Position numbers and translations under genes: made by a program. A DNA stretch of 64,000 nt from an uncultured Candidatus Saccharibacteria bacterium. GTDB taxonomy: Bacteria > Patescibacteriota > Minisyncoccia > Phycocordibacterales > GWA1-40-21. The DNA is taken from the NCBI GenBank assembly GCA_964513515.1, contig CAZEMP010000001.1, forward strand, positions 75,336 to 139,335, written 5' to 3'. The notes beneath the pieces were generated by a model. The model ran no database searches. It worked only from the letters and a program-made list of their open reading frames with translations, and had not been told where the DNA came from. This document shows positions 8,574-63,876 of the stretch, one piece after another (position 1 is the stretch's first letter; each line of letters begins with the position of its first letter).

Positions 8574-8603
8574 ATATTTAAAGTATACACTAAATTATTT
8601 TTT

Positions 8604-8648
8604 CAACAAAAGAATAGGGCCCGAGTCTCGTAAAGACGACTCGGGCCC
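8604..8648 (-). terminator. intrinsic terminator of the minus-strand GC-rich unit
   Basis: Perfect 11-bp stem GGGCCCGAGTC/GACTCGGGCCC followed on the minus strand by TATTCTTTTGTTG. Confidence 0.6.
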
Positions 8649-9385
8649 CTTGCCAAATTTTGATAGGCACATTCTTTTGTCATGCTCTCTGCAGAGCATC
8701 AAGATCTTTGTTATTTGGGCCCTTGGCGGAGCCCATAACGCGGATCAGAACATTCCTCACCGTTGGCCAGACGATACAGGTGTGGTTAGTACCCGTATTT
8801 GATGCATTTCGCAGACCACCTGAGGTATTACCTCAAGCAATCTAGATCCTCCCGGACCCCTATGGATCAGTTATCCATAGACTTGTGACAAGAAAGAAAT
8901 CGTAGAAATGAGAGCCCTTGCGGACAACTCTTCCCTAGACTTCTCAAGACTTCTAGACATTGCATATTTTGGTTGCCTTTATGGCTTCCATTTGGTCCTT
9001 GTTTAAGGGATCAATGTGAATTGTCACTACCTTAGCCTGGAGGCATGGGGTAATAACTTTCCACAATATGTTCTGTGACAACTCTTTTCCCTTTCGAGTT
9101 AAGAGTTATGGATTTGATCTGTTTAGGATCTTTTCCACATCACCTACTGTCGTTACTCTTACTCGCGTAAGTTCACGGGAAGTAGGTTGATTAGCTAGAA
9201 GTCGCTGCATCTTGTGTGACTGCCGTTCGAGCGGGTTCGAGGCCCACTTATATTTCCCTGATGGTTTCGAGGCCATCATTTCTCGTCTGTCTGCGAGAAG
9301 GAACAACAGTTTGCGTGCGCAAAATCTTTTTGCTACGCTGTGCCAACTAAATTTGTGAAAGAACTGATTTACGTTACAACTAAAA
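8649..9385 (-). ncRNA. candidate large structured non-coding RNA (~740-780 nt, class unknown)
   Basis: GC-elevated block (~45% vs ~30% background) bounded by a promoter and terminator on the minus strand. It has no ORF of 60 aa or more in the transcribed orientation. Confidence 0.35.
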
Positions 9386-21463: not shown

Positions 21464-24334
21464 TTATATTACAAAATTGATTATTCTGTTTTTAACAAAG
21501 ATTTTCTTAATTATTTTTACATTTTTCAACCACTTGACAACGTGTTCATTTTTTAAAGCTGTAGCTTCAACCATCTGCTCATCCGAATCTATAGGAACCT
21601 CAATAGTTGCCCTTACCTTTCCACTAATTTGAACTATTATTTTTACAATCGATGAAATTAATTTTGTATCATCATATTCAGGCCAGGCCTCAGTAACAAT
21701 AAGTTTTTTATTACCAAAATTCTTCCAAATCTCTTCGCACATATGTGGAGCAAACGGAGAAAGAATTTTTATAAAATCTAGATAAGCTTTTTTACTTATA
21801 TTTTGTTCTGATTCAAGTAGGTTTGAAAATATCATCATAGAAGATACTGCTGTGTTTGCATTGAAAGATAATATATCTTCTCCAACTTTTTTAATCGTTT
21901 TGTTTAACGATAAAATAACCCTTTCACTATCTGTAAATTTATCAATGACTTTATCTTGTAATTTCCATACTCTTTCCAAAAATCTTCTCGATCCTATCAT
22001 GCTGTCTGTACTCCATGATATCTCCTGCTCAAAAGGACCCATAAAAGATTCATAAATTCTTAATGTATCTGCACCAACATTTTTTATAACGTCATCCGGG
22101 TTAACAACATTTCCCCATCTTTTGCTCATTTTTCTTCCATCAGAGCCAAGAACTGTACCTTGATTTCTAAGTTCCTTAAATGGTTCTTTACCTGAAACAA
22201 TACCAATATCAAATAAAAACTTATGCCAAAATCTTGCATATATTAGATGTCTTGTAGCGTGCTCTGTACCACCCACATACATATCTACCGGTGACCAATA
22301 CTTTTCTTTCTTTTTATCTACAATGGCTTTATTATTTTTTGGATCAATAAATCTTAAATAATACCAAGAAGAACCGGCCCACTGTGGCATTGTGTTTGTT
22401 TCCCTTTTAGCTTTCTCTCCACAATTTGGACATTTAGTATTTACCCAACTCTTCATGTCAGCAAGAGGTGACTCTCCTGTACCTGTTGGCTCATACGATT
22501 TAACTTTTGGAAGTAAGACTGGTAAATCCTTTTCTGGCACTGGCACAACTCCGCATGTCTCACAATGAATAAGTGGTATTGGCTCTCCCCAATATCTCTG
22601 TCTTGAAAAAACCCAATTTTGGAGTTTGTATGAAGTGGTCAATTTTCCACCAGCAAATTCTGTTATGTCTTTTTTTACTTCAGTATTTTTTCTACCATCA
22701 AACCTGCCAGAATTTACCATTACTCCGTCGAGAGTATAACAATCATTGTTCAAAACTCTTTTCCACATAAGCTTTAAATCGTCACGGTTTAAAAATTTCT
22801 CCATTTCTTCTGCTGTGAGCCACTCGGTTTTGTGTAGCTTCTTTTCATGTTCTGCTATCGGAGCAGTTTCTCCATTTTTTAGTTTGTATAAAAGTGGTGT
22901 CCAGTGAGCAAGACGATTTTCATTCTTTACTGCTTGATAAAAGCTAGCATCAACTTGAAAACCTAAAGCGCGAACAAAAACTGCATTAGCATATCCAGTT
23001 TCTTCCTTTATTTCTCTGACACCAGCATCTGCTATGTCCTCATCTTCATTTACACCCCCAGTAACAAATCCTCTCCAATCATTTTTTGTCCAATGTACGC
23101 CTAAATATTTTTCTTCTGACCAATGTTTAATTATACAAACCATAACAGTTCTCTCTGTATAAGGTAAATTTTCGCGAACTGCATCATCACCAATAGTTCT
23201 TACAAATTTTGGTCTTATTACTTCTTTAATAGGAAGATTATATTTCTTTGCAAAAGCAAAATCGCGCTCATCATGAGCCGGAACCGCCATAACTGCACCT
23301 GTACCATAATGAGCAAGTACGTAGTCTGAAATATATACTGGTATTTTTTCTTTAGTAATAGGGTGCTTCACAATCACACCCTTTAAAGGGACGCCTGTTT
23401 TTTCTCTTGATTCTGATGTGCGTTCAATTTCTGATTTTGTTTTTGTAAGATTTATGTAATCTTGTACATCATTCCAATTTTCAATCTGTGGTTTTAGCTT
23501 ATCAATAAGTTTATGCTCTGGTGCTAAAACTACATAAGTTACACCAAACAAAGTATCTGGTCTTGTTGTAAAAACAATCACTTTCTCATCTGAATTGGCA
23601 ATATTAAACCATAATTCTGAACCTTCACTCTTTCCTATCCAATTCCTCTGAAGTTCTTTTATATGTTCAGGCCAGTCAAGTTCTTTTAAATCAAGAAGAA
23701 GTCTTTCTGCATAATCACGAATCTTTAACACCCATTGTCTCATTGGCTTTTTTTCAACCACTGTTCCACACCTCTCACATTTACCATCTTCCAAATCTTC
23801 ATTAGCTAGACCGGTCTTACATGAAGGACACCAATTGATCGGCTCGTTAGATTCATAAGCTAGACCCTTTTTAAAAAGTTGTAAAAAAATCCATTGTGTC
23901 CATTTGTAATATTTTGGGTCGGTCGTATTTATTTCACGATCCCAATCATAACTAAGACCAATCATCTTTATCTGCTCTTTATATCTTTTAACATTCTTCT
24001 TTACAGCAGTCGCTGGATTGATCTTCATCTTTATCGCGTATTGTTCTGCTGGTAAACCGAAAGCGTCCCATCCCATAGGATGAAGTATGTTAAAACCTTG
24101 CATTCTCTTTAGTCTAGAATATATGTCTGTTGCAATGTATCCTCTTGGATGTCCAACATGTAAACCTTCTCCAGATGGATAAGGGAACATATCCAAAACA
24201 TAGTATTTTGGATTATTATTTTTTTCAGAAGTTTTATAAACTTTTTTCTTGTCCCAAATAGCTTGCCATTTTTTCTCTATTTTTAAATGATTATATTTTA
24301 AATTCTGAGGTTTTAGTTTCATAACATTGTGCAA
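21464..24334 (-). CDS. leuS: leucyl-tRNA synthetase carrying an inserted NUDIX hydrolase domain
   Basis: HVGHPRGY (HIGH) and KMSKR motifs. The editing region TTRPDT...GTGAVMAVPAHDERD is present. An extra ~165 aa with a canonical Nudix box lies between the editing domain and the GVMVNSGRFDG block. Confidence 0.9.
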   Translation of the reverse strand: MHNVMKLKPQNLKYNHLKIEKKWQAIWDKKKVYKTSEKNNNPKYYVLDMFPYPSGEGLHVGHPRGYIATDIYSRLKRMQGFNILHPMGWDAFGLPAEQYAIKMKINPATAVKKNVKRYKEQIKMIGLSYDWDREINTTDPKYYKWTQWIFLQLFKKGLAYESNEPINWCPSCKTGLANEDLEDGKCERCGTVVEKKPMRQWVLKIRDYAERLLLDLKELDWPEHIKELQRNWIGKSEGSELWFNIANSDEKVIVFTTRPDTLFGVTYVVLAPEHKLIDKLKPQIENWNDVQDYINLTKTKSEIERTSESREKTGVPLKGVIVKHPITKEKIPVYISDYVLAHYGTGAVMAVPAHDERDFAFAKKYNLPIKEVIRPKFVRTIGDDAVRENLPYTERTVMVCIIKHWSEEKYLGVHWTKNDWRGFVTGGVNEDEDIADAGVREIKEETGYANAVFVRALGFQVDASFYQAVKNENRLAHWTPLLYKLKNGETAPIAEHEKKLHKTEWLTAEEMEKFLNRDDLKLMWKRVLNNDCYTLDGVMVNSGRFDGRKNTEVKKDITEFAGGKLTTSYKLQNWVFSRQRYWGEPIPLIHCETCGVVPVPEKDLPVLLPKVKSYEPTGTGESPLADMKSWVNTKCPNCGEKAKRETNTMPQWAGSSWYYLRFIDPKNNKAIVDKKKEKYWSPVDMYVGGTEHATRHLIYARFWHKFLFDIGIVSGKEPFKELRNQGTVLGSDGRKMSKRWGNVVNPDDVIKNVGADTLRIYESFMGPFEQEISWSTDSMIGSRRFLERVWKLQDKVIDKFTDSERVILSLNKTIKKVGEDILSFNANTAVSSMMIFSNLLESEQNISKKAYLDFIKILSPFAPHMCEEIWKNFGNKKLIVTEAWPEYDDTKLISSIVKIIVQISGKVRATIEVPIDSDEQMVEATALKNEHVVKWLKNVKIIKKIFVKNRIINFVI

Positions 24335-24428: not shown

Positions 24429-24468
24429 ACTAGACTTATGTTCTTTCGTTTTATATCGCAATCAATTT

Positions 24469-24660
24469 TTGTCGAGAAAACAAACCCGTAATGGAGGATC
24501 GGTGCGAGTCAGGAAGCATCACATACTCACAGGTAGGGTGATGGAGTCGTTCTGTCCCGGATTCAAGGGCTTCGACAAGAGGATGAAGGAGAGGGCGGTA
24601 CTGCGTGTGTACGACCACCTGAAGAGTCAGGGCGAGCTCGTCCACATGGGGAGGAAGTAA
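24469..24660 (+). other. GC-rich small transcription unit (structured sRNA or small basic protein; unresolved)
   Basis: Segment of ~55% GC between a near-consensus promoter and a strong terminator. The frame starting at TTG 24469 gives a 63-aa basic peptide. An internal ATG with an SD-like AGGTAGGGTG gives 40 aa. Confidence 0.3.
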
Positions 24661-24683
24661 CGCTGGGCAACCAGCAAAAAGAC

Positions 24684-24712
24684 GGCGGGGTAATCACCCC
24701 GCCTCTTTCTAT
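24684..24712. terminator. bidirectional intrinsic terminator
   Basis: GGCGGGGtaatcaCCCCGCC with T-rich runs on both strands. It also follows the rmuC stop. Confidence 0.6.
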
Positions 24713-24719
24713 TCTCATT

Positions 24720-25847
24720 TTATTCGTCTTCCCTCTCAGGTTTAGCTAATTCTAGTATTTCTAGATCTGAATCAATACCAGTGATTCTTACAACATCCTT
24801 ATCAATCTTTTTAAACTCTTTATTTGAATTATTAAAGTGACTTACCGTTGTAGAAAGTGCATTACCGAGCTTTTCTTGATATTCGCCATAGCTTCTTAAA
24901 TGTTTTTGTAAACTCTCAACGTTTTTCTTTATATCTTTTGCTGATTCTTCAATCTGAAGTGCTTTCAAACCTTGTAGAACCGTTTGTAGATATGCAAGAA
25001 ATGATGTTGGAGAAACAATAATTACATGCTTTTCTTTAAATGCGTATTCAACGAGATCTCTGGTATTTACTTTTATAGCTCCAACTTGAGATATAAGAAG
25101 ATCATAATATATAGCTTCATGCGGAATAAACATAAATGCAAAATCCATTGTCCCCTCGCCCGCCTTAACATATTTTGCCGTCTCATCTATTCTTTTCTTT
25201 AAATCTTCTTTAAAAAGTTTCTCTAATCTTTCTTTTTCAACTTGATTCTTTTCATCAACAAGACGGTTGTAATTTTCAAGAGAGAATTTGGAATCTATAG
25301 GTATTATTTTATCTTTTACAAAAACAACAGCGTCCACAATAGTTCCATCTTTAAATGAATATTGCATTTGATAGCTTCCTGTCGGTAAAACATTTTTTAG
25401 TAATGTTTCAAGATAATATTCTCCGAGAATTCCTCTTTGTTTAGGATTTTTAAGAATATCTTGCAAAGATTGAAGTTGGTCCGCAAAAGAAACTACTTGC
25501 TTATTTGTCTCATCAAGTCTTGTTAATTTTTCTGTAATATCACGAATAATATTGAAAGATTCCGTAGATTGATGTTTCAAAGATTCGTGCATTTGCTTTG
25601 AATTCTCACCTATTTTTTTATCTACAGTTCTATTAAGCTCATTGATCTGCTCTAAAATTAGCTTAAGACCAATATCTTCACCTTTGTTTTCTTTATTAGA
25701 TTCATGTTTAACTATGTAATACAGGAGAGCTGCGATTATAACTATGAGTATAAGTAAAATAATTGTTAATACTGTTGCAAAATTCATGATGTCATTATAC
25801 CAATAAATAATAAATGTGGTAATATTAAAAAGTTTAAAATTATTCAT
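24720..25847 (-). CDS. rmuC: DNA recombination protein RmuC
   Basis: N-terminal TM helix, coiled coil, and a C-terminal RmuC nuclease-like region (DFAFMFIPHEAIYY). Confidence 0.7.
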   Translation of the reverse strand: MNNFKLFNITTFIIYWYNDIMNFATVLTIILLILIVIIAALLYYIVKHESNKENKGEDIGLKLILEQINELNRTVDKKIGENSKQMHESLKHQSTESFNIIRDITEKLTRLDETNKQVVSFADQLQSLQDILKNPKQRGILGEYYLETLLKNVLPTGSYQMQYSFKDGTIVDAVVFVKDKIIPIDSKFSLENYNRLVDEKNQVEKERLEKLFKEDLKKRIDETAKYVKAGEGTMDFAFMFIPHEAIYYDLLISQVGAIKVNTRDLVEYAFKEKHVIIVSPTSFLAYLQTVLQGLKALQIEESAKDIKKNVESLQKHLRSYGEYQEKLGNALSTTVSHFNNSNKEFKKIDKDVVRITGIDSDLEILELAKPEREDE

Positions 25848-26373: not shown

Positions 26374-26401
26374 TTGACATAACTCAATATAGTGTTATAG
26401 T
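26374..26401 (+). promoter_or_regulatory. sigma70 consensus promoter (TTGACA-16-TATAGT)
   Basis: Exact -35 hexamer at 26374-26379 and TATAGT at 26396-26401. Confidence 0.5.
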
Positions 26402-26450
26402 TGAACTTGAGCTTTGTTCACCACGTCGTAAACAGAGAGGTTCTTAAACA

Positions 26451-26717
26451 GTGGCGGTAACGATCGATACGTCTCGCGTTTCGACGCAGGATGTCGCGTG
26501 CACCCGAAAATGGATCGCTATTCATGGCTTCTGCGGCCTTGCCTTCACCAAAGCGGAAGAGGAACGCAATCTCCCCTCTGGGACGATGGCGAGCTACTTC
26601 GGCAAGCGCAGACTGATGAAGAAGCGGTCTGTCGAGAGGCGCCCTTTGGAGAAGGCGCGCGTCCCCATTCCCAATTGCAGGGACTGGATGGCGGAGTGGG
26701 AGGCAAACCAGCCTTAA
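26451..26717 (+). other. GC-rich small transcription unit (88-aa GTG-initiated ORF or structured RNA; unresolved)
   Basis: ~57% GC. The ORF ends 6 nt before a strong terminator. An alternative 80-aa frame overlaps it, so coding status is ambiguous. Confidence 0.3.
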
Positions 26718-26723
26718 GAATGG

Positions 26724-26758
26724 GGGCGGGTCTAGTATAGACCCGCCCCTCTTTCATT
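26724..26758 (+). terminator. intrinsic terminator
   Basis: GGGCGGGTCTAgtataTAGACCCGCCC followed by CTCTTTCATTTG. Confidence 0.65.
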
Positions 26759-26803
26759 TGTTCAAAATATTAAAAACTGTTATATTTGTTTTTGTATTTC
26801 ATT

Positions 26804-26875
26804 GGCCTTATCGTCTAACGGTTAGGACACGGCCTTCTCAAGGCTGTAATCGGGGTTCGATTCCCCGTAAGGTCA
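26804..26875 (+). tRNA. tRNA-Glu (anticodon CTC)
   Basis: Manual fold. Acceptor GGCCTTA/TAAGGTC, D-arm GTCT..GGAC, anticodon stem CGGCC/GGCTG with loop TTCTCAA, T-arm CGGGG-TTCGATT-CCCCG, discriminator A. Confidence 0.75.
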
Positions 26876-26888
26876 CAAAAATAATAAA

Positions 26889-26947: not shown

Positions 26948-27099
26948 AGACGAAGCGGGGCCCAAAGGAAAAACTAATAACACAATATAAAAATTATCAT
27001 TTGTAAATTGATAATAAAATATTTAAATGTTAAATTTTTTATAGAAGTACACGTCCCGTCACAGCGCGGGGCATAACCCAAAAAAGAGGTTCAAACCAA

Positions 27100-28170
27100 A
27101 TGACTCAGGAAAACGAGACGGAAGCGGTCCATCCACTCCTTTCAAAGGAGGTTGGGCCAATCCGAAATTGGCATGAATGGCTAGAGTACTGGAACAGGGC
27201 GGATAACTACCAGTGGATGGAGAGTTTGCTCCACACAGGTTTTAACGTCCCACTCGAGAAGATGTCCTCTGAAGAAAAAGAGTATGACGAGCTTGACCGC
27301 TACATATTCTACTTCTCTGTGGCAGACGGATGGGCACACCACTGGAAGTCTGAAGGTAGTTGGCGTGATGAGAAAGAATACGACATCGGTGTTCGTGGTA
27401 CAAACGGATCATCGAGAAAGTTCACGATACCTCAACTTCGCCGTCGATTGGCAACAAAAGCATTCGATATACTGTGTCTGAACCTATTCAGGGTAGAGTT
27501 GCGACTTAGTGGAGAAAGTGAATTCTACTGGAGCTGGGAGCGTCACATAGCTTCCAAAAAACTCTTCCCTGTGATTGTGAATTTCTTCAGGATAGAAAAA
27601 AGTAAGTTCGGTAGTGGTGCGGAGATTATTAACCTGTCTCAATGTTTTCATGGTGAAAAATCTCACAACGAACAACATGCCGTTAACTTTCTTCTACATC
27701 TGGTGGAATTCATGTGGGAGTGTAAGAACAACTGGATAACTTCCACTCCTGCGACTGAAAGGGATGAGATGATTATCCGCGTGAATGAGGCAAAACCGTG
27801 GATGATCGAGATCCTTGCTGAGCTCGGGAAACTCGATAAGTTACGCAGATGGATACTTGATCTTGATAAAACTTGTCTTTCCAAGATCAAGGAGATCGCA
27901 ATGCGTAACAGGCTTACTGGGTTTCGAGATCGAGGAGAGAACGAAGATCGCTTTGTCTCCTCACTTGATGAGGCCTGCTATGCCGGCTCAAAAGCAGCCT
28001 GGTTCCTCAAAGAGCATGAGCTAATGCAAAAGGAAAGCAAGCGCCTTGAGGCTATCCGCGAGTCTGAGAGAGCAAAGTGGGAAGTTGATCGCAGACGTGA
28101 AGCGATTCGTGAAGCCGAGAAGGCAAAAGCTGAAGCTGACCGCAAACTCAGAGACCTTAAGGGTCAGTGA
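27100..28170 (+). CDS. hypothetical protein, GC-rich (~48% GC), Trp-rich with C-terminal charged coiled coil
   Basis: 356-aa ORF with an AAGAGG SD. Codon usage is distinct from neighbouring genes. A terminator follows immediately. Confidence 0.5.
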   Translation: MTQENETEAVHPLLSKEVGPIRNWHEWLEYWNRADNYQWMESLLHTGFNVPLEKMSSEEKEYDELDRYIFYFSVADGWAHHWKSEGSWRDEKEYDIGVRGTNGSSRKFTIPQLRRRLATKAFDILCLNLFRVELRLSGESEFYWSWERHIASKKLFPVIVNFFRIEKSKFGSGAEIINLSQCFHGEKSHNEQHAVNFLLHLVEFMWECKNNWITSTPATERDEMIIRVNEAKPWMIEILAELGKLDKLRRWILDLDKTCLSKIKEIAMRNRLTGFRDRGENEDRFVSSLDEACYAGSKAAWFLKEHELMQKESKRLEAIRESERAKWEVDRRREAIREAEKAKAEADRKLRDLKGQ

Positions 28171-28181
28171 GTTTGTAAGAA

Positions 28182-28220
28182 CTGCGGGGTCCGACAGGAC
28201 CCCGCAGCTTTCTTTTATTT
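28182..28220 (+). terminator. intrinsic terminator
   Basis: CTGCGGGGTCCgacaGGACCCCGCAG followed by CTTTCTTTTATTTT. Confidence 0.65.
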
Positions 28221-28296
28221 TAAATATTATTCACTCTTGATATTTTTCTATTTTACATATATTATCCCCACCGGAAAACATCCCGGGAGGGTGTAA

Positions 28297-28482
28297 ATGT
28301 TGAAATGGTTTATTTCGTTCTTTGGCCACTTTGTCTTGTGGCAGTGGCTTCTTTTCACCTTTATCGTCGTCGTGGTGTGCTTCGTGTTTTGCTGCCTTCT
28401 TGGTCTTTGGTCAGTCGTGACCGTGTGGGCCAAGCAGGAAGAAGAAGCAAAACGTAACCGCGTTTGGACTATGGGCTGGTGA
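28297..28482 (+). CDS. small hydrophobic membrane protein (GC-rich)
   Basis: 61 aa with a strong SD (GGGAGGG) 6 nt upstream of the ATG. Two TM segments. Confidence 0.4.
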   Translation: MLKWFISFFGHFVLWQWLLFTFIVVVVCFVFCCLLGLWSVVTVWAKQEEEAKRNRVWTMGW

Positions 28483-28490
28483 AAAGAAAA

Positions 28491-28517
28491 GGGCCGTCGC
28501 GCAGTGCGCGATGGCCC
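28491..28517. terminator. GC-rich hairpin terminator (stronger T-run on minus strand)
   Basis: GGGCCGTCGCGCAgtgCGCGATGGCCC, with TTTTCTTTTC on the minus strand. It serves the 28528-28821 gene. Confidence 0.55.
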
Positions 28518-28527
28518 TTTCAAATTA

Positions 28528-28821
28528 TTATACAGAGACAGGTTCTCTTTCTGATCCACCTTCATTTTTTAAACTTAGTGCTTTAATAACAAACTTTGCT
28601 GCTTCATTATATTCTCCACTATTAATAAGATCTCTGACTTCTATATTTTCCGGATCATCAATAAGTTTAGCAATATTTTTTGCATTTTCTGATAACCATT
28701 TTGCTTGGTTTATTGAATCTTCAAGACTCATGTTTAATTCTTTTATTATAGCAATCTGAAGAAAATTTCTTGCTTTTGTTGAAATTTCTTTTGAATTTTC
28801 TTTTAATGTTTCTGTTACCAT
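28528..28821 (-). CDS. hypothetical protein
   Basis: 97 aa, AT-rich native composition, helical. No family recognised. Confidence 0.4.
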   Translation of the reverse strand: MVTETLKENSKEISTKARNFLQIAIIKELNMSLEDSINQAKWLSENAKNIAKLIDDPENIEVRDLINSGEYNEAAKFVIKALSLKNEGGSEREPVSV

Positions 28822-45329: not shown

Positions 45330-45374
45330 TTTAGAAAACAAAAGGCTCAGACAAAAGAGCCTTTTGTCTGAGCC
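45330..45374 (-). terminator. intrinsic terminator
   Basis: GGCTCAGACAAAAGagccTTTTGTCTGAGCC with a minus-strand T-run. Confidence 0.55.
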
Positions 45375-45376
45375 GG

Positions 45377-45610
45377 TTACGCTTCCGGTTTGGAAGTGAA
45401 AAACCCCCACGTAAAGCTGTAATGGTGCGCTTCCGCACCGCAATTCATACAGCTTGTCTTGTAATAGGATCCCCATTTCCTATCCGTGATCTTGGTCTTG
45501 AAGCTTCCACAGACCCCGCACCTACCTGCCCGAAAGGTAAAGAGTACGACGGCTCCGACACCAACCAGAACTGCTCCAGAAACCGCTGCGACTACTGCAG
45601 GCGTTGGCAT
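45377..45610 (-). CDS. small TM + CxxC...CxxC zinc-ribbon protein, GC-rich copy
   Basis: ~77 aa starting MPTPAVV. The SD is GGGAGG. One TM helix, then the CGVCGS...CMNCG motifs. ~58% GC. Confidence 0.45.
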   Translation of the reverse strand: MPTPAVVAAVSGAVLVGVGAVVLFTFRAGRCGVCGSFKTKITDRKWGSYYKTSCMNCGAEAHHYSFTWGFFTSKPEA

Positions 45611-45757
45611 TAGGACAGCCTCCCAAGAAAGTTGAATTAACAACCGGAAAAATATATACTAAATAAATATATATGTCAATATAAATAACTTATAAGAAAA
45701 CAAAAAGCCCAGAACAAAAGGCTTTTTGTCTGGACTACTAACTTCTTTGGTGTAATA

Positions 45758-58920: not shown

Positions 58921-59001
58921 GCCGGAGTGGTGGAATGGTAGACACGCACGACTCAAAATCGTGTTCCGAAAGGGGTGAGAGTTCAAGTCTCTCCTCCGGC
59001 A
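58921..59001 (+). tRNA. tRNA-Leu (anticodon CAA), type II with long variable arm
   Basis: Acceptor GCCGGAG/CTCCGGC, anticodon stem CACGA/TCGTG with loop CTCAAAA, long variable arm, T-arm GAGAG-TTCAAGT-CTCTC, discriminator A. Confidence 0.8.
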
Positions 59002-59011
59002 CAATAAAAAT

Positions 59012-60895: not shown

Positions 60896-60955
60896 TTTAT
60901 TTATTATAAGAGATGTGATTTGACTTACTCTCTAATCCATTCACTCTGCTTACTG

Positions 60956-61026
60956 CGGGAGATGGAGGAATCGGACCTCCGACAGCGGTTTTGGAGACCG
61001 CAGTTATACCACTTAACTAATCTCCC
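60956..61026 (-). tRNA. tRNA-Trp (anticodon CCA)
   Basis: Minus-strand fold. Acceptor GGGAGAT/ATCTCCC, D-arm GTTA..TAAC, anticodon stem GCGGT/ACCGC with loop CTCCAAA, T-arm GGAGG-TCCGATT-CCTCC, discriminator G. Confidence 0.75.
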
Positions 61027-63379: not shown

Positions 63380-63876
63380 AAGGGGGCACCTTTCGGTACT
63401 CCCTTTCCATAACCTTTATACCTATAAGCCGAATTCTGTTTGTTGTATTACTACAACAAGATAATCATCTGTCTGGGCCAAACATTACTGTTTAGCTCAA
63501 GCGGCGCTTCCCCACACCTATTCTGTTATCATTGCTATCGTGTTTTAAGATACTAGACGATATTAACTTTTATTTACTAAGTAGACTTAATATCATTTTA
63601 CAAGTCTCGCTTAGCAACAAAAACACAATAATAGAATAGGTGTGGGGACTCGGCCTTGCACCAAGGTAAGGAATTTTGCCGTTGCACCCTTATGTTGCCA
63701 TAAGGACTATCCACTAGGGATATCTCCATTCTTTCGTCTGGAGCCGTTTCTGTTCGCACCTCTCATATTGCTATGGACGGGCGTTACCCGCTACCCTTCT
63801 CCTCAACTTTAACATTGAGGTGATGTTCGGACTTTCCTCCCCAACAAAGTTGGAGCAATTATCCAATATAAAGGCA
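63380..63876 (-). ncRNA. rnpB: RNase P RNA (bacterial type A-like) containing a 136-nt palindromic insertion
   Basis: Minus-strand motifs GGAGGAAAGTCCGAAC (P4/CR-I), GGGTAGCGGGTAACGCCCGTCC, GTGCGAACAGAAACGGCTCC, GCCGCTTGAGC and ACAGAATTCGGCTTATAGG (CR-IV). P1 pairs CCTTTATA with TATAAAGG. A terminator hairpin lies at 63377-63410. Confidence 0.65.
63512..63647. repeat. 136-nt palindromic unit embedded in the P15-P17 region of rnpB
   Basis: CCCCACACCTATTCTGTTATCATTGC...GCAACAAAAACACAATAATAGAATAGGTGTGGGGA. The conserved RNase P segment GCCGCTTGAGC follows directly. Confidence 0.55.

Follow-up and report, generated by a model that had tools for sequence, protein, structure and literature searches.

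Aminoacyl-tRNA synthetases (aaRSs) make dinucleoside polyphosphates as side-products from an aminoacyl-adenylate and ATP, and in the known systems that connect aaRSs with diadenosine tetraphosphate (Ap4A) the producer and the hydrolase are separate proteins. The 64,000-nucleotide stretch of DNA analysed here (hereafter the window; positions 75,336 to 139,335 of contig CAZEMP010000001.1, assembly GCA_964513515.1, from an uncultured Candidatus Saccharibacteria bacterium) carries a leuS gene whose product combines a leucyl-tRNA synthetase (LeuRS) with a Nudix hydrolase domain in a single chain. This protein is like the bacterial-type LeuRSs of Thermus thermophilus (2BTE, 2BYT and 1H3N) and Escherichia coli (4AQ7) in its set and order of domains, in its HIGH and KMSKS signatures, and in the threonine-rich and AHDxRD motifs of the connective peptide 1 (CP1) editing domain. 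It differs from the T. thermophilus enzyme in that a 12-residue CP1 loop of the latter (residues 364-375) is replaced by a Nudix domain of 158 amino acids. The editing domain, itself an insert in the Rossmann fold, thus hosts a further domain, giving the window LeuRS three levels of nesting that T. thermophilus LeuRS does not have.

The leuS open reading frame (ORF) occupies positions 21464..24334 of the minus strand and encodes, without interruption of the frame, a bacterial-type LeuRS of 956 amino acids when read from a TTG codon. A database copy with 100% identity (P0003) begins at an ATG at 24322, four codons downstream of the TTG, and is 952 amino acids long. Against the NCBIfam model TIGR00396 (leuS_bact) the whole protein scores 1025.5 bits, compared with an equivalog cut-off of 548.4, and Pfam reports the LeuRS editing domain, the class I catalytic domain and the anticodon-binding domain, plus NUDIX; no endonuclease or intein domain was found in the protein with Pfam. 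An AlphaFold2 (AF2) model of the full-length chain has a predicted local distance difference test (pLDDT) value of 85, with the insert region at 87-95, and a predicted template-modelling (pTM) score of 0.72. The top Foldseek match of this model is T. thermophilus LeuRS (2bte, TM-score 0.81).

All landmarks expected of the host enzyme are found on the same strand. The HIGH signature of the synthetic site, here HVGH, lies at 24149..24160 (amino acids 59-62). The first part of CP1 (23216..23647, amino acids 230-373) ends in ...KKYNLPIKEVI, aligns with residues 191-363 of T. thermophilus LeuRS and matches positions 1-161 of the 185 in the PF13603 profile with 219 bits. Within it are the threonine-rich editing motif TTRPDT (23552..23569, amino acids 256-261) and the editing-site motif AHDERD, which includes the conserved Asp (23261..23278, amino acids 353-358). 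Beyond the insert, the chain resumes with the remainder of CP1 and the return to the catalytic core (22595..22741, amino acids 532-580, CYTLDGVMVNSGRFDG...SRQR), equivalent to T. thermophilus LeuRS from residue 376 onward, followed by the KMSKS loop, here KMSKR (22118..22132, amino acids 735-739), and the anticodon-binding domain (21575..21910, amino acids 809-920; PF08264, 70.7 bits). In an alignment of 76 close relatives these motifs are invariant or nearly so: HVGH, TTRPDT and the H, D, R and D of the AHDxRD motif do not vary, and the KMSKS loop is conserved. Because both the synthetic and the editing motifs are intact, the Nudix domain is no substitute for a decayed editing site, and apart from the insert the window protein is, as judged from its sequence, a complete and functional bacterial-type LeuRS.

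When its borders are set against insert-free relatives, the inserted Nudix domain spans 22742..23215 (minus strand, amino acids 374-531). The interval of 22760-23161 given in a preliminary description of this locus corresponds to amino acids 392-525 and holds the core of the fold. That description also placed the extra domain ahead of the conserved block GVMVNSGRFDG, which is correct, but took CP1 to have ended before the insertion, which is not. The alignment puts the site between residues 363 and 376 of T. thermophilus LeuRS, in a loop that is 13 residues long in close insert-free relatives. Since the PF13603 profile is broken at position 161 of 185 and GVMVNSGRFDG belongs to the same domain, the insert lies inside CP1 rather than after it. 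In the counts below, 'post-CP1' is used only as a label for this site.

The NUDIX family PF00293 matches amino acids 417-516 of the whole protein with 41.5 bits, and the excised insert alone with 46.6 bits (E=4.4e-12), against a gathering score of 21.1. The Nudix box GGVNEDEDIADAGVREIKEETGY (22991..23059, amino acids 426-448) is intact, as had been claimed, and fits the consensus GX5EX7REUXEEXGU at every specified position (G426, E432, R440, E441, I442, E444, E445, G447 and Y448). Of these residues, E441, E444 and E445 are predicted to be the metal-binding and catalytic ones. Two further elements characterize the subfamily. The motif KHWSEEKYL (23102..23128, amino acids 403-411), whose K, H, W, S, E, K and Y are invariant in a tighter subfamily alignment, served as the basis of a genome pattern scan, and the X-loop specificity region FYQAVKNENR (22913..22942, amino acids 465-474) covers positions +17 to +26 after the box. 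An AF2 model of the Nudix domain alone (pLDDT 94.3, pTM 0.86) matches many Nudix hydrolases with a Foldseek probability of 1.0, including 2azw and 3i7u with TM-scores of 0.77-0.80. The modelled fold, the alpha/beta/alpha sandwich typical of Nudix enzymes, together with conservation of the box across the family, agrees with the earlier expectation of an enzyme that is probably active, and this surface loop of CP1 holds a genuine, folded and probably catalytically competent Nudix domain.

The source sequence is derived from a metagenome, and the preliminary description had itself named a frameshift or an assembly chimera as what could undo the finding. Neither is borne out. The gene is a single continuous ORF, and a second, independent assembly (ENA ERZ27284378, contig k139_29820) is 100% identical to it over 2,991 bp that span the whole gene. 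GC content is homogeneous along the gene (0.361 in the insert and 0.337 in the rest), as is GC content at third codon positions (GC3; 0.222 in the insert against 0.238 and 0.244 in the rest), so that the insert presents no compositional anomaly in this genome by either measure. At 74 of 80 species-representative genome loci, a single stop-free frame encodes a complete LeuRS together with one to three Nudix domains, the same architecture recurs in more than 100 protein clusters, and the whole chain is folded confidently by AF2. In our estimation, there is a negligible chance that this architecture stems from a frameshift, from a chimeric assembly or from a neighbouring Nudix gene wrongly joined to leuS.

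The insert is not rare among LeuRSs of Patescibacteria. A word-indexed search with the insert alone returned just two proteins, including a LeuRS fragment, a misleadingly small yield that was superseded by searches with the full-length protein and by an exhaustive HMMER search (E<=0.001) against 1.84 billion representative proteins. The latter matched 312 clusters. Among the best 150 of these, which were classified by architecture, nearly all are LeuRSs or LeuRS fragments and about 35 are short proteins of 150-200 amino acids. Some short matches are gene fragments (e.g. P0002), and at least one (P0001, on a 29-kb contig where its gene context is uninformative) is a truly free-standing member. 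On this classification, the Nudix subfamily is lineage-specific and is found almost only as an aaRS insert.

Among the 120 closest full-length LeuRS relatives, a single Nudix domain at the post-CP1 site is the most frequent architecture (72 proteins). One domain before and one after CP1 are present in 19 proteins, two before and one after in 12, and one before CP1 only in a single protein; 16 carry none. Additional architectures place a Nudix domain in the C-terminal half of the catalytic domain or a tandem pair after CP1. Patescibacteria LeuRSs therefore hold Nudix domains at four sites or more, with up to three copies per protein. A scan of one genome per species with the pattern KHWSE[DE], which covers only some Nudix types and hence gives a lower bound, yielded 176 confirmed LeuRS-Nudix loci. 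Their titles name Taylor-, Vogel-, Adler-, Nomura- and Kaiserbacteria, Paceibacterota, Parcubacteria and Saccharimonadales, and most close LeuRS relatives in Paceibacteria-type Patescibacteria carry the insert. The names under which relatives are deposited, where they have any, are 'leucine--tRNA ligase', 'leucyl-tRNA synthetase' or 'class I tRNA ligase family protein'. Several LeuRS-Nudix contigs (L003, L008, L012, L018, L019 and others) bear the titles 'uncultured Gammaproteobacteria', 'Candidatus Saccharibacteria' or 'Nanoarchaeota archaeon'. Such off-lineage titles probably reflect mislabelled or mis-binned metagenome-assembled genomes and not occurrences outside Patescibacteria.

Only one other host of the subfamily was found. 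Five clusters of class II prolyl-tRNA synthetase (ProRS; P0260 and P0272-P0275, 641-674 amino acids) carry the same Nudix subfamily at about amino acids 382-545, between the HGTP_anticodon and ProRS-C_1 domains, with the X-loop F[YF]AxHKxxNR. The nearest insert-free relatives of these ProRSs are labelled Nanoarchaeota or Woesearchaeota. LeuRS relatives of 1,136-1,558 amino acids also have hydrolase domains besides Nudix in other loops. P0150 has a complete Ham1/ITPase domain (amino acids 984-1167, 197 bits) between its catalytic and anticodon-binding domains, P0022 has an inserted HAD domain (amino acids 997-1155), and P0011 (amino acids 597-784), P0087 (amino acids 251-407) and P0076 (amino acids 651-771) have Ser_hydrolase or alpha-beta hydrolase domains at one of two sites, before CP1 or in the C-terminal catalytic half.

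The residues expected to carry out catalysis are retained in most members. In 198 post-CP1 copies, the first Gly of the box is present in 195, the Glu of GX5E in 173 (with Gln in 14 and Asp in 7), the Arg in 178, the three subsequent Glu residues in 195, 191 and 196, and the last Gly in 190. The X-loop, located approximately 17 residues after the box, determines specificity among Nudix enzymes, and a Tyr there marks diadenosine polyphosphate (ApnA) hydrolases (PMC5389931, summarising Dunn 1999). In the same 198 copies this region begins with an aromatic pair (F465 and Y466 in the window), with Phe in 114 and Tyr in 72 at position +17, and Phe in 94 and Tyr in 84 at +18. Lys at +22, Asn at +25 and Arg at +26 are present in 176-189 copies and are near-invariant across all site classes as well as among the stand-alone proteins, giving a subfamily motif of [FY][FY]xxxKxxNR. 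The mean pairwise identity of the Nudix domains is only about 35-39%, and retention of the box and the X-loop at this level of divergence argues for selection on catalysis. A different pattern is seen in the second of two pre-CP1 copies, where the box Glu is replaced by Gln in 12 of 16 sequences and the Arg by Ala in 8 of 16; judging by these substitutions, that copy may be catalytically impaired.

This constancy of the active site coexists with rapid turnover of the module around it. At the window's site, the 66 inserts can be sorted into at least 13 types that are less than about 45% identical to one another, and insert length is held at 161-177 amino acids. Identity of the LeuRS backbone predicts identity of CP1 (Spearman 0.75), but is a poor predictor of Nudix identity (0.32-0.35). 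Among pairs of backbones that are more than 85% identical, the Nudix domains are more than 80% identical in 24 pairs and less than 40% identical in 9. For example, P0007 and P0048 are 89% identical in the backbone and 28% identical in the Nudix domain, and the corresponding values for P0004 and P0008 are 87% and 26%. Sliding-window identity drops exactly at the borders of the insert and then recovers at once. The bimodal identities and the sharp drop led us to reject a purely vertical, clock-like divergence of the insert.

Besides the window protein, only P0007 (backbone 70%, Nudix 69%) and P0072 have the window's own type, designated T5. The backbones nearest to that of the window protein belong to P0012 (82%), which has no insert, P0004 (81%; Nudix 34%) and P0008 (80%; Nudix 28%). 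On a neighbour-joining (NJ) tree of backbones the insert state changes at least 29 times (minimum 13, mean 42 for shuffled labels), and presence or absence of Nudix alone changes 9 times among 76 sequences. Copies cluster by site and not by host: 168 of 188 post-CP1 copies have another post-CP1 copy as their nearest neighbour outside their own protein, and identity between copies of the same protein is only about 35%. From these two observations it follows that the sites were colonised long ago, and recent duplication was rejected as the source of multi-copy proteins. The pattern would be produced either by a cassette exchanged by recombination between lineages or by differential loss of tandem paralogues; tandem Nudix forms exist in P0185 and P0210. 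At the insert borders, a search for traces of mobile elements found only short direct or inverted repeats at chance level and no target-site duplication. Because close relatives have LeuRSs without it, the Nudix module is accessory: it is dispensable, often lost, duplicated and replaced, and its active site stays constant.

Comparisons with characterised Nudix enzymes narrow the range of candidate substrates. The domain scores far below the cut-off of every curated NCBIfam Nudix equivalog (21.5 bits versus 116 for the RppH models PRK00714, 19.9 versus 475 for MutT1 NF052459, and 18.9 versus 169 for NudE), which indicates a distinct Nudix subfamily. By sequence, the best solved relative is the lupin Ap4A hydrolase 1f3y (E=0.0027). 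With a family profile, the best matches in the Protein Data Bank (PDB) are the decapping effector AvrM14 (1.5e-8) and the lupin enzyme (3.4e-7), followed by an Enterococcus MutT/nudix protein, the Aquifex Ap4A hydrolase 3i7u (3e-6), Dcp2 and DIPP1. The values for 1f3y by sequence and 3i7u by profile fall short of family-level similarity to characterised Ap4A hydrolases. Structural neighbours beyond this set include Mycobacterium smegmatis MutT1 and M. tuberculosis Rv2985 ('Nudix diadenosine polyphosphatase'), Chlamydia CT771, human Ap4A hydrolase, T. thermophilus Ndx1 and RppH, with TM-scores of up to 0.8 and identities of 14-23%. By sequence and model, the domain falls nearest to the branch of Nudix enzymes that cleave dinucleoside polyphosphates, diphosphoinositol polyphosphates and cap structures, an affinity that does not fix its substrate. 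In five genomes labelled Saccharimonadales, a separate Nudix gene of about 165 codons lies on the strand of the Nudix-bearing leuS, approximately 1.2 kb downstream of it (L055 7589-8113, L063 7091-7630, L066 6620-7126, L069 7030-7539 and L070 7021-7530). These downstream genes belong to a different family and clearly resemble the Aquifex Ap4A hydrolase (E=1.3e-15) and T. thermophilus Ndx1.

From the presence, fold, motif conservation, distribution and evolutionary behaviour described above, we infer that the insert is an active Mg2+-dependent Nudix pyrophosphohydrolase that acts on Ap4A-type dinucleoside polyphosphates or close relatives while tethered to the class of enzyme that makes them. 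We put this proposal as a whole at about an even chance of being right, a valuation earned mostly by the 'active Nudix' part. The box glutamates E441, E444 and E445 would coordinate Mg2+ for hydrolysis of a diphosphate linkage in a nucleoside-polyphosphate compound whose X-moiety would be read by the conserved X-loop. The likeliest substrates would be Ap4A-type dinucleoside polyphosphates, or related NpnN or cap-like compounds, and LeuRS would carry its own clean-up or recycling activity, converting Ap4A to ATP and AMP. The lead toward ApnA-type compounds comes from the nearest relatives, which are Ap4A, DIPP and decapping enzymes, from the aromatic pair at +17 and +18, and from recurrence of the subfamily in ProRS, which points to a link with aaRS chemistry in general and not with LeuRS alone. 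We count the Ap4A-hydrolase-like gene downstream of leuS in five genomes toward the same link. Clearance of a by-product had been proposed in the preliminary description, and for the same reasons Ap4A is still the best single guess. Nudix enzymes cleave a diphosphate linkage, and an aminoacyl-adenylate has a single phosphate in a mixed anhydride; the other substrate named there, the aminoacyl-adenylate, is therefore an unlikely one and was set aside on these chemical grounds.

Several observations weigh against this proposal. The closest backbone relative (P0012) does without the domain, and the substrate call draws on a single positional rule and on distant resemblance at about 15-21% identity, in a subfamily that approaches no curated equivalog and has Phe as commonly as Tyr at the X-loop position. 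Retention of the embedded domain beside a canonical Ap4A hydrolase suggests that the two have non-redundant substrates, with Nudix at four or more sites in one to three copies no precise geometry relative to the LeuRS active sites seems to be needed, and the Ham1, HAD and serine-hydrolase inserts of relatives indicate a more generic house-cleaning theme. The last three points also speak for a different view, in which the domain is an active sanitiser, for example of oxidised or aberrant (d)NTPs, that rides in a permissive loop with no connection to aminoacylation or editing, the large, essential and constitutively expressed host being a minimal genome's way to guarantee its expression. The dispensability and frequent loss of the module fit such a passenger, as does the presence of the 8-oxo-(d)GTPase MutT1 and of MutT/nudix proteins among the top structural matches, and the range of inserted enzymes suggests that small house-cleaning hydrolases find a permissive scaffold in the LeuRS of Patescibacteria. 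We regard the passenger explanation as possible yet rather unlikely, given that a random passenger would not be expected to be almost confined to LeuRS and ProRS hosts, that true stand-alone members are a small minority among matches of which many look like gene fragments, and that curated MutT families are not matched.

The position of the insert raises another prospect, since all common sites flank or fall within CP1, the domain that handles the tRNA 3' end. LeuRS might serve as a tRNA-binding platform for an RNA-directed enzyme that removes 5'-pyrophosphate, NAD or Np4A caps in the manner of RppH, Dcp2 or AvrM14, or that repairs a modified tRNA end. AvrM14 is indeed the best PDB profile match, Dcp2 and RppH are among the neighbours, and the RppH models are the best, if sub-threshold, NCBIfam Nudix matches. 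However, these similarities are remote and are common to the ApnA hydrolases of the same branch, the RppH cut-offs are missed by about 95 bits, the ProRS insert sits in a different context between the anticodon-binding and C-terminal domains, and no RNA-binding extension is evident in the domain; we judge this role improbable. Distinctly improbable, in our view, is a conflict-driven function, in which an exchangeable module guards the translation apparatus of an episymbiont from nucleotide-based attack or signalling, with nucleotide alarmones made by toxins or phages, or tRNA or RNA ends that are pyrophosphorylated or capped and are handled near the CP1 3'-end site, as candidate targets. The 13 or more types in one loop, the swaps between near-identical backbones and the one to three copies per protein prompt this idea, under which turnover would reflect an arms race and not neutral drift, but the X-loop is conserved across all types and PADLOC defence models gave no meaningful match (best 12.7 bits, E=0.018, in the box region only). 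Searches for phage affinity returned generic phage Nudix families only. A domain that acts only as a spacer, as a tRNA- or protein-binding surface, or as a nucleotide sensor that regulates LeuRS has little probability. Non-enzymatic Nudix domains are known (PMC5389931), and the substitutions in the second pre-CP1 copy of three-copy proteins reveal that some copies tolerate decay, but the window copy and about 90-99% of post-CP1 copies keep all catalytic residues and the X-loop despite their overall divergence.

Other features of the window include several GC-rich islands in a genome of 33% GC. One of these (24451-24750, up to 59% GC) separates leuS from an upstream rmuC-like ORF. Its minus strand has a strong hairpin resembling a terminator, gaggcggggtgattaccccgccgtcttttt, after the upstream stop codon, and on its plus strand there is a possible 72-codon stop-free frame ending in ...MESFCPGFKGFDKRMKERAVLRVYDHLKSQGELVHMGRK. 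An Rfam search found no family above threshold in this island and no leader RNA or T-box upstream of leuS, the only match being a sub-threshold one of 17 bits to PrrB/RsmZ. A second island, of 400 nucleotides and up to 61% GC (26380-26800), lies just upstream of tRNA-Glu(CUC) at 26804-26876. Its plus strand folds far more stably than shuffled controls (-152 kcal/mol, z = -3.96) and ends in a perfect GC hairpin with a U-tract, and no Rfam family matches it above threshold; it is possible that this island is an undescribed structured RNA. Further islands with 49-54% GC (2251-2450, 8601-8850, 9151-9350, 27051-28550 and 45351-45650; window 33% GC) are mutually dissimilar by blastn, and some lie within ORFs (e.g. 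27034-28167). The window also encodes a bacterial class A RNase P RNA (63409-63874, minus strand, 125 bits), tRNA-Leu(CAA) (58921-59002, plus strand) and tRNA-Trp(CCA) (60955-61026, minus strand).

The preliminary description knew of no reported LeuRS-Nudix fusion, and we likewise found no description of any aaRS-Nudix fusion in full-text literature searches, in a clan-wide Nudix review of 2017, which does not mention aaRSs, or in the AARS Online paper. Both families are well known, and the sequences are public with precomputed Pfam hits, so that the architecture has been visible to anyone looking; it is the combination that departs from the textbook. A domain-insertion survey of 2026 (PMC13114784) classes PF13603 as insertion-exclusive and counts no instance of it as a host, and the protein described here contradicts the generalisation that the LeuRS editing domain hosts no domains. 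An essential aaRS here has a second catalytic domain nested in its editing domain, an arrangement conserved in hundreds of species of uncultured Patescibacteria. Whatever the substrate, the cassette-like turnover, the multi-copy forms, the parallel capture by ProRS and the co-inserted hydrolases are unusual for a core translation enzyme, and together they suggest that LeuRS in reduced genomes serves as a scaffold for small hydrolases. If the Nudix domain does degrade Ap4A-type compounds, the window protein would be the first case of an Ap4A producer joined covalently to its hydrolase, and would offer a direct experimental handle on the long-standing question of whether dinucleoside polyphosphates made by aaRSs are signals or waste.

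The embedded domain shares its fold, a canonical box and an aromatic residue at about +17 with Nudix hydrolases of (di)nucleoside polyphosphates such as lupin 1F3Y, Aquifex aq_158 (3I7U), human NUDT2, T. thermophilus Ndx1, DIPP1, Dcp2 and AvrM14. It differs from them in being only about 15-21% identical, in having its own signature (KHWSEDKYL and [FY][FY]xxxKxxNR) and in being embedded in an aaRS rather than free-standing; in some genomes it coexists with an aq_158-like Ap4A hydrolase. A partial parallel exists among synthetases of the same subclass, where the isoleucine--tRNA ligases of NCBIfam NF040702 ('N-acetyltransferase domain-containing') likewise represent a class I aaRS fused to an unrelated small-molecule enzyme domain. 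The window protein is not a member of that family (93 bits versus a cut-off of 1999), and its additional domain is a Nudix domain that lies within CP1, is present in multiple copies in relatives and behaves like a cassette. Finally, the established biology of aaRSs and Ap4A, with ApaH, RppH and Nudix hydrolases as degraders and Np4A as RNA caps, would supply the logic for the window protein, in which a producer and a candidate degrader are joined in one chain.

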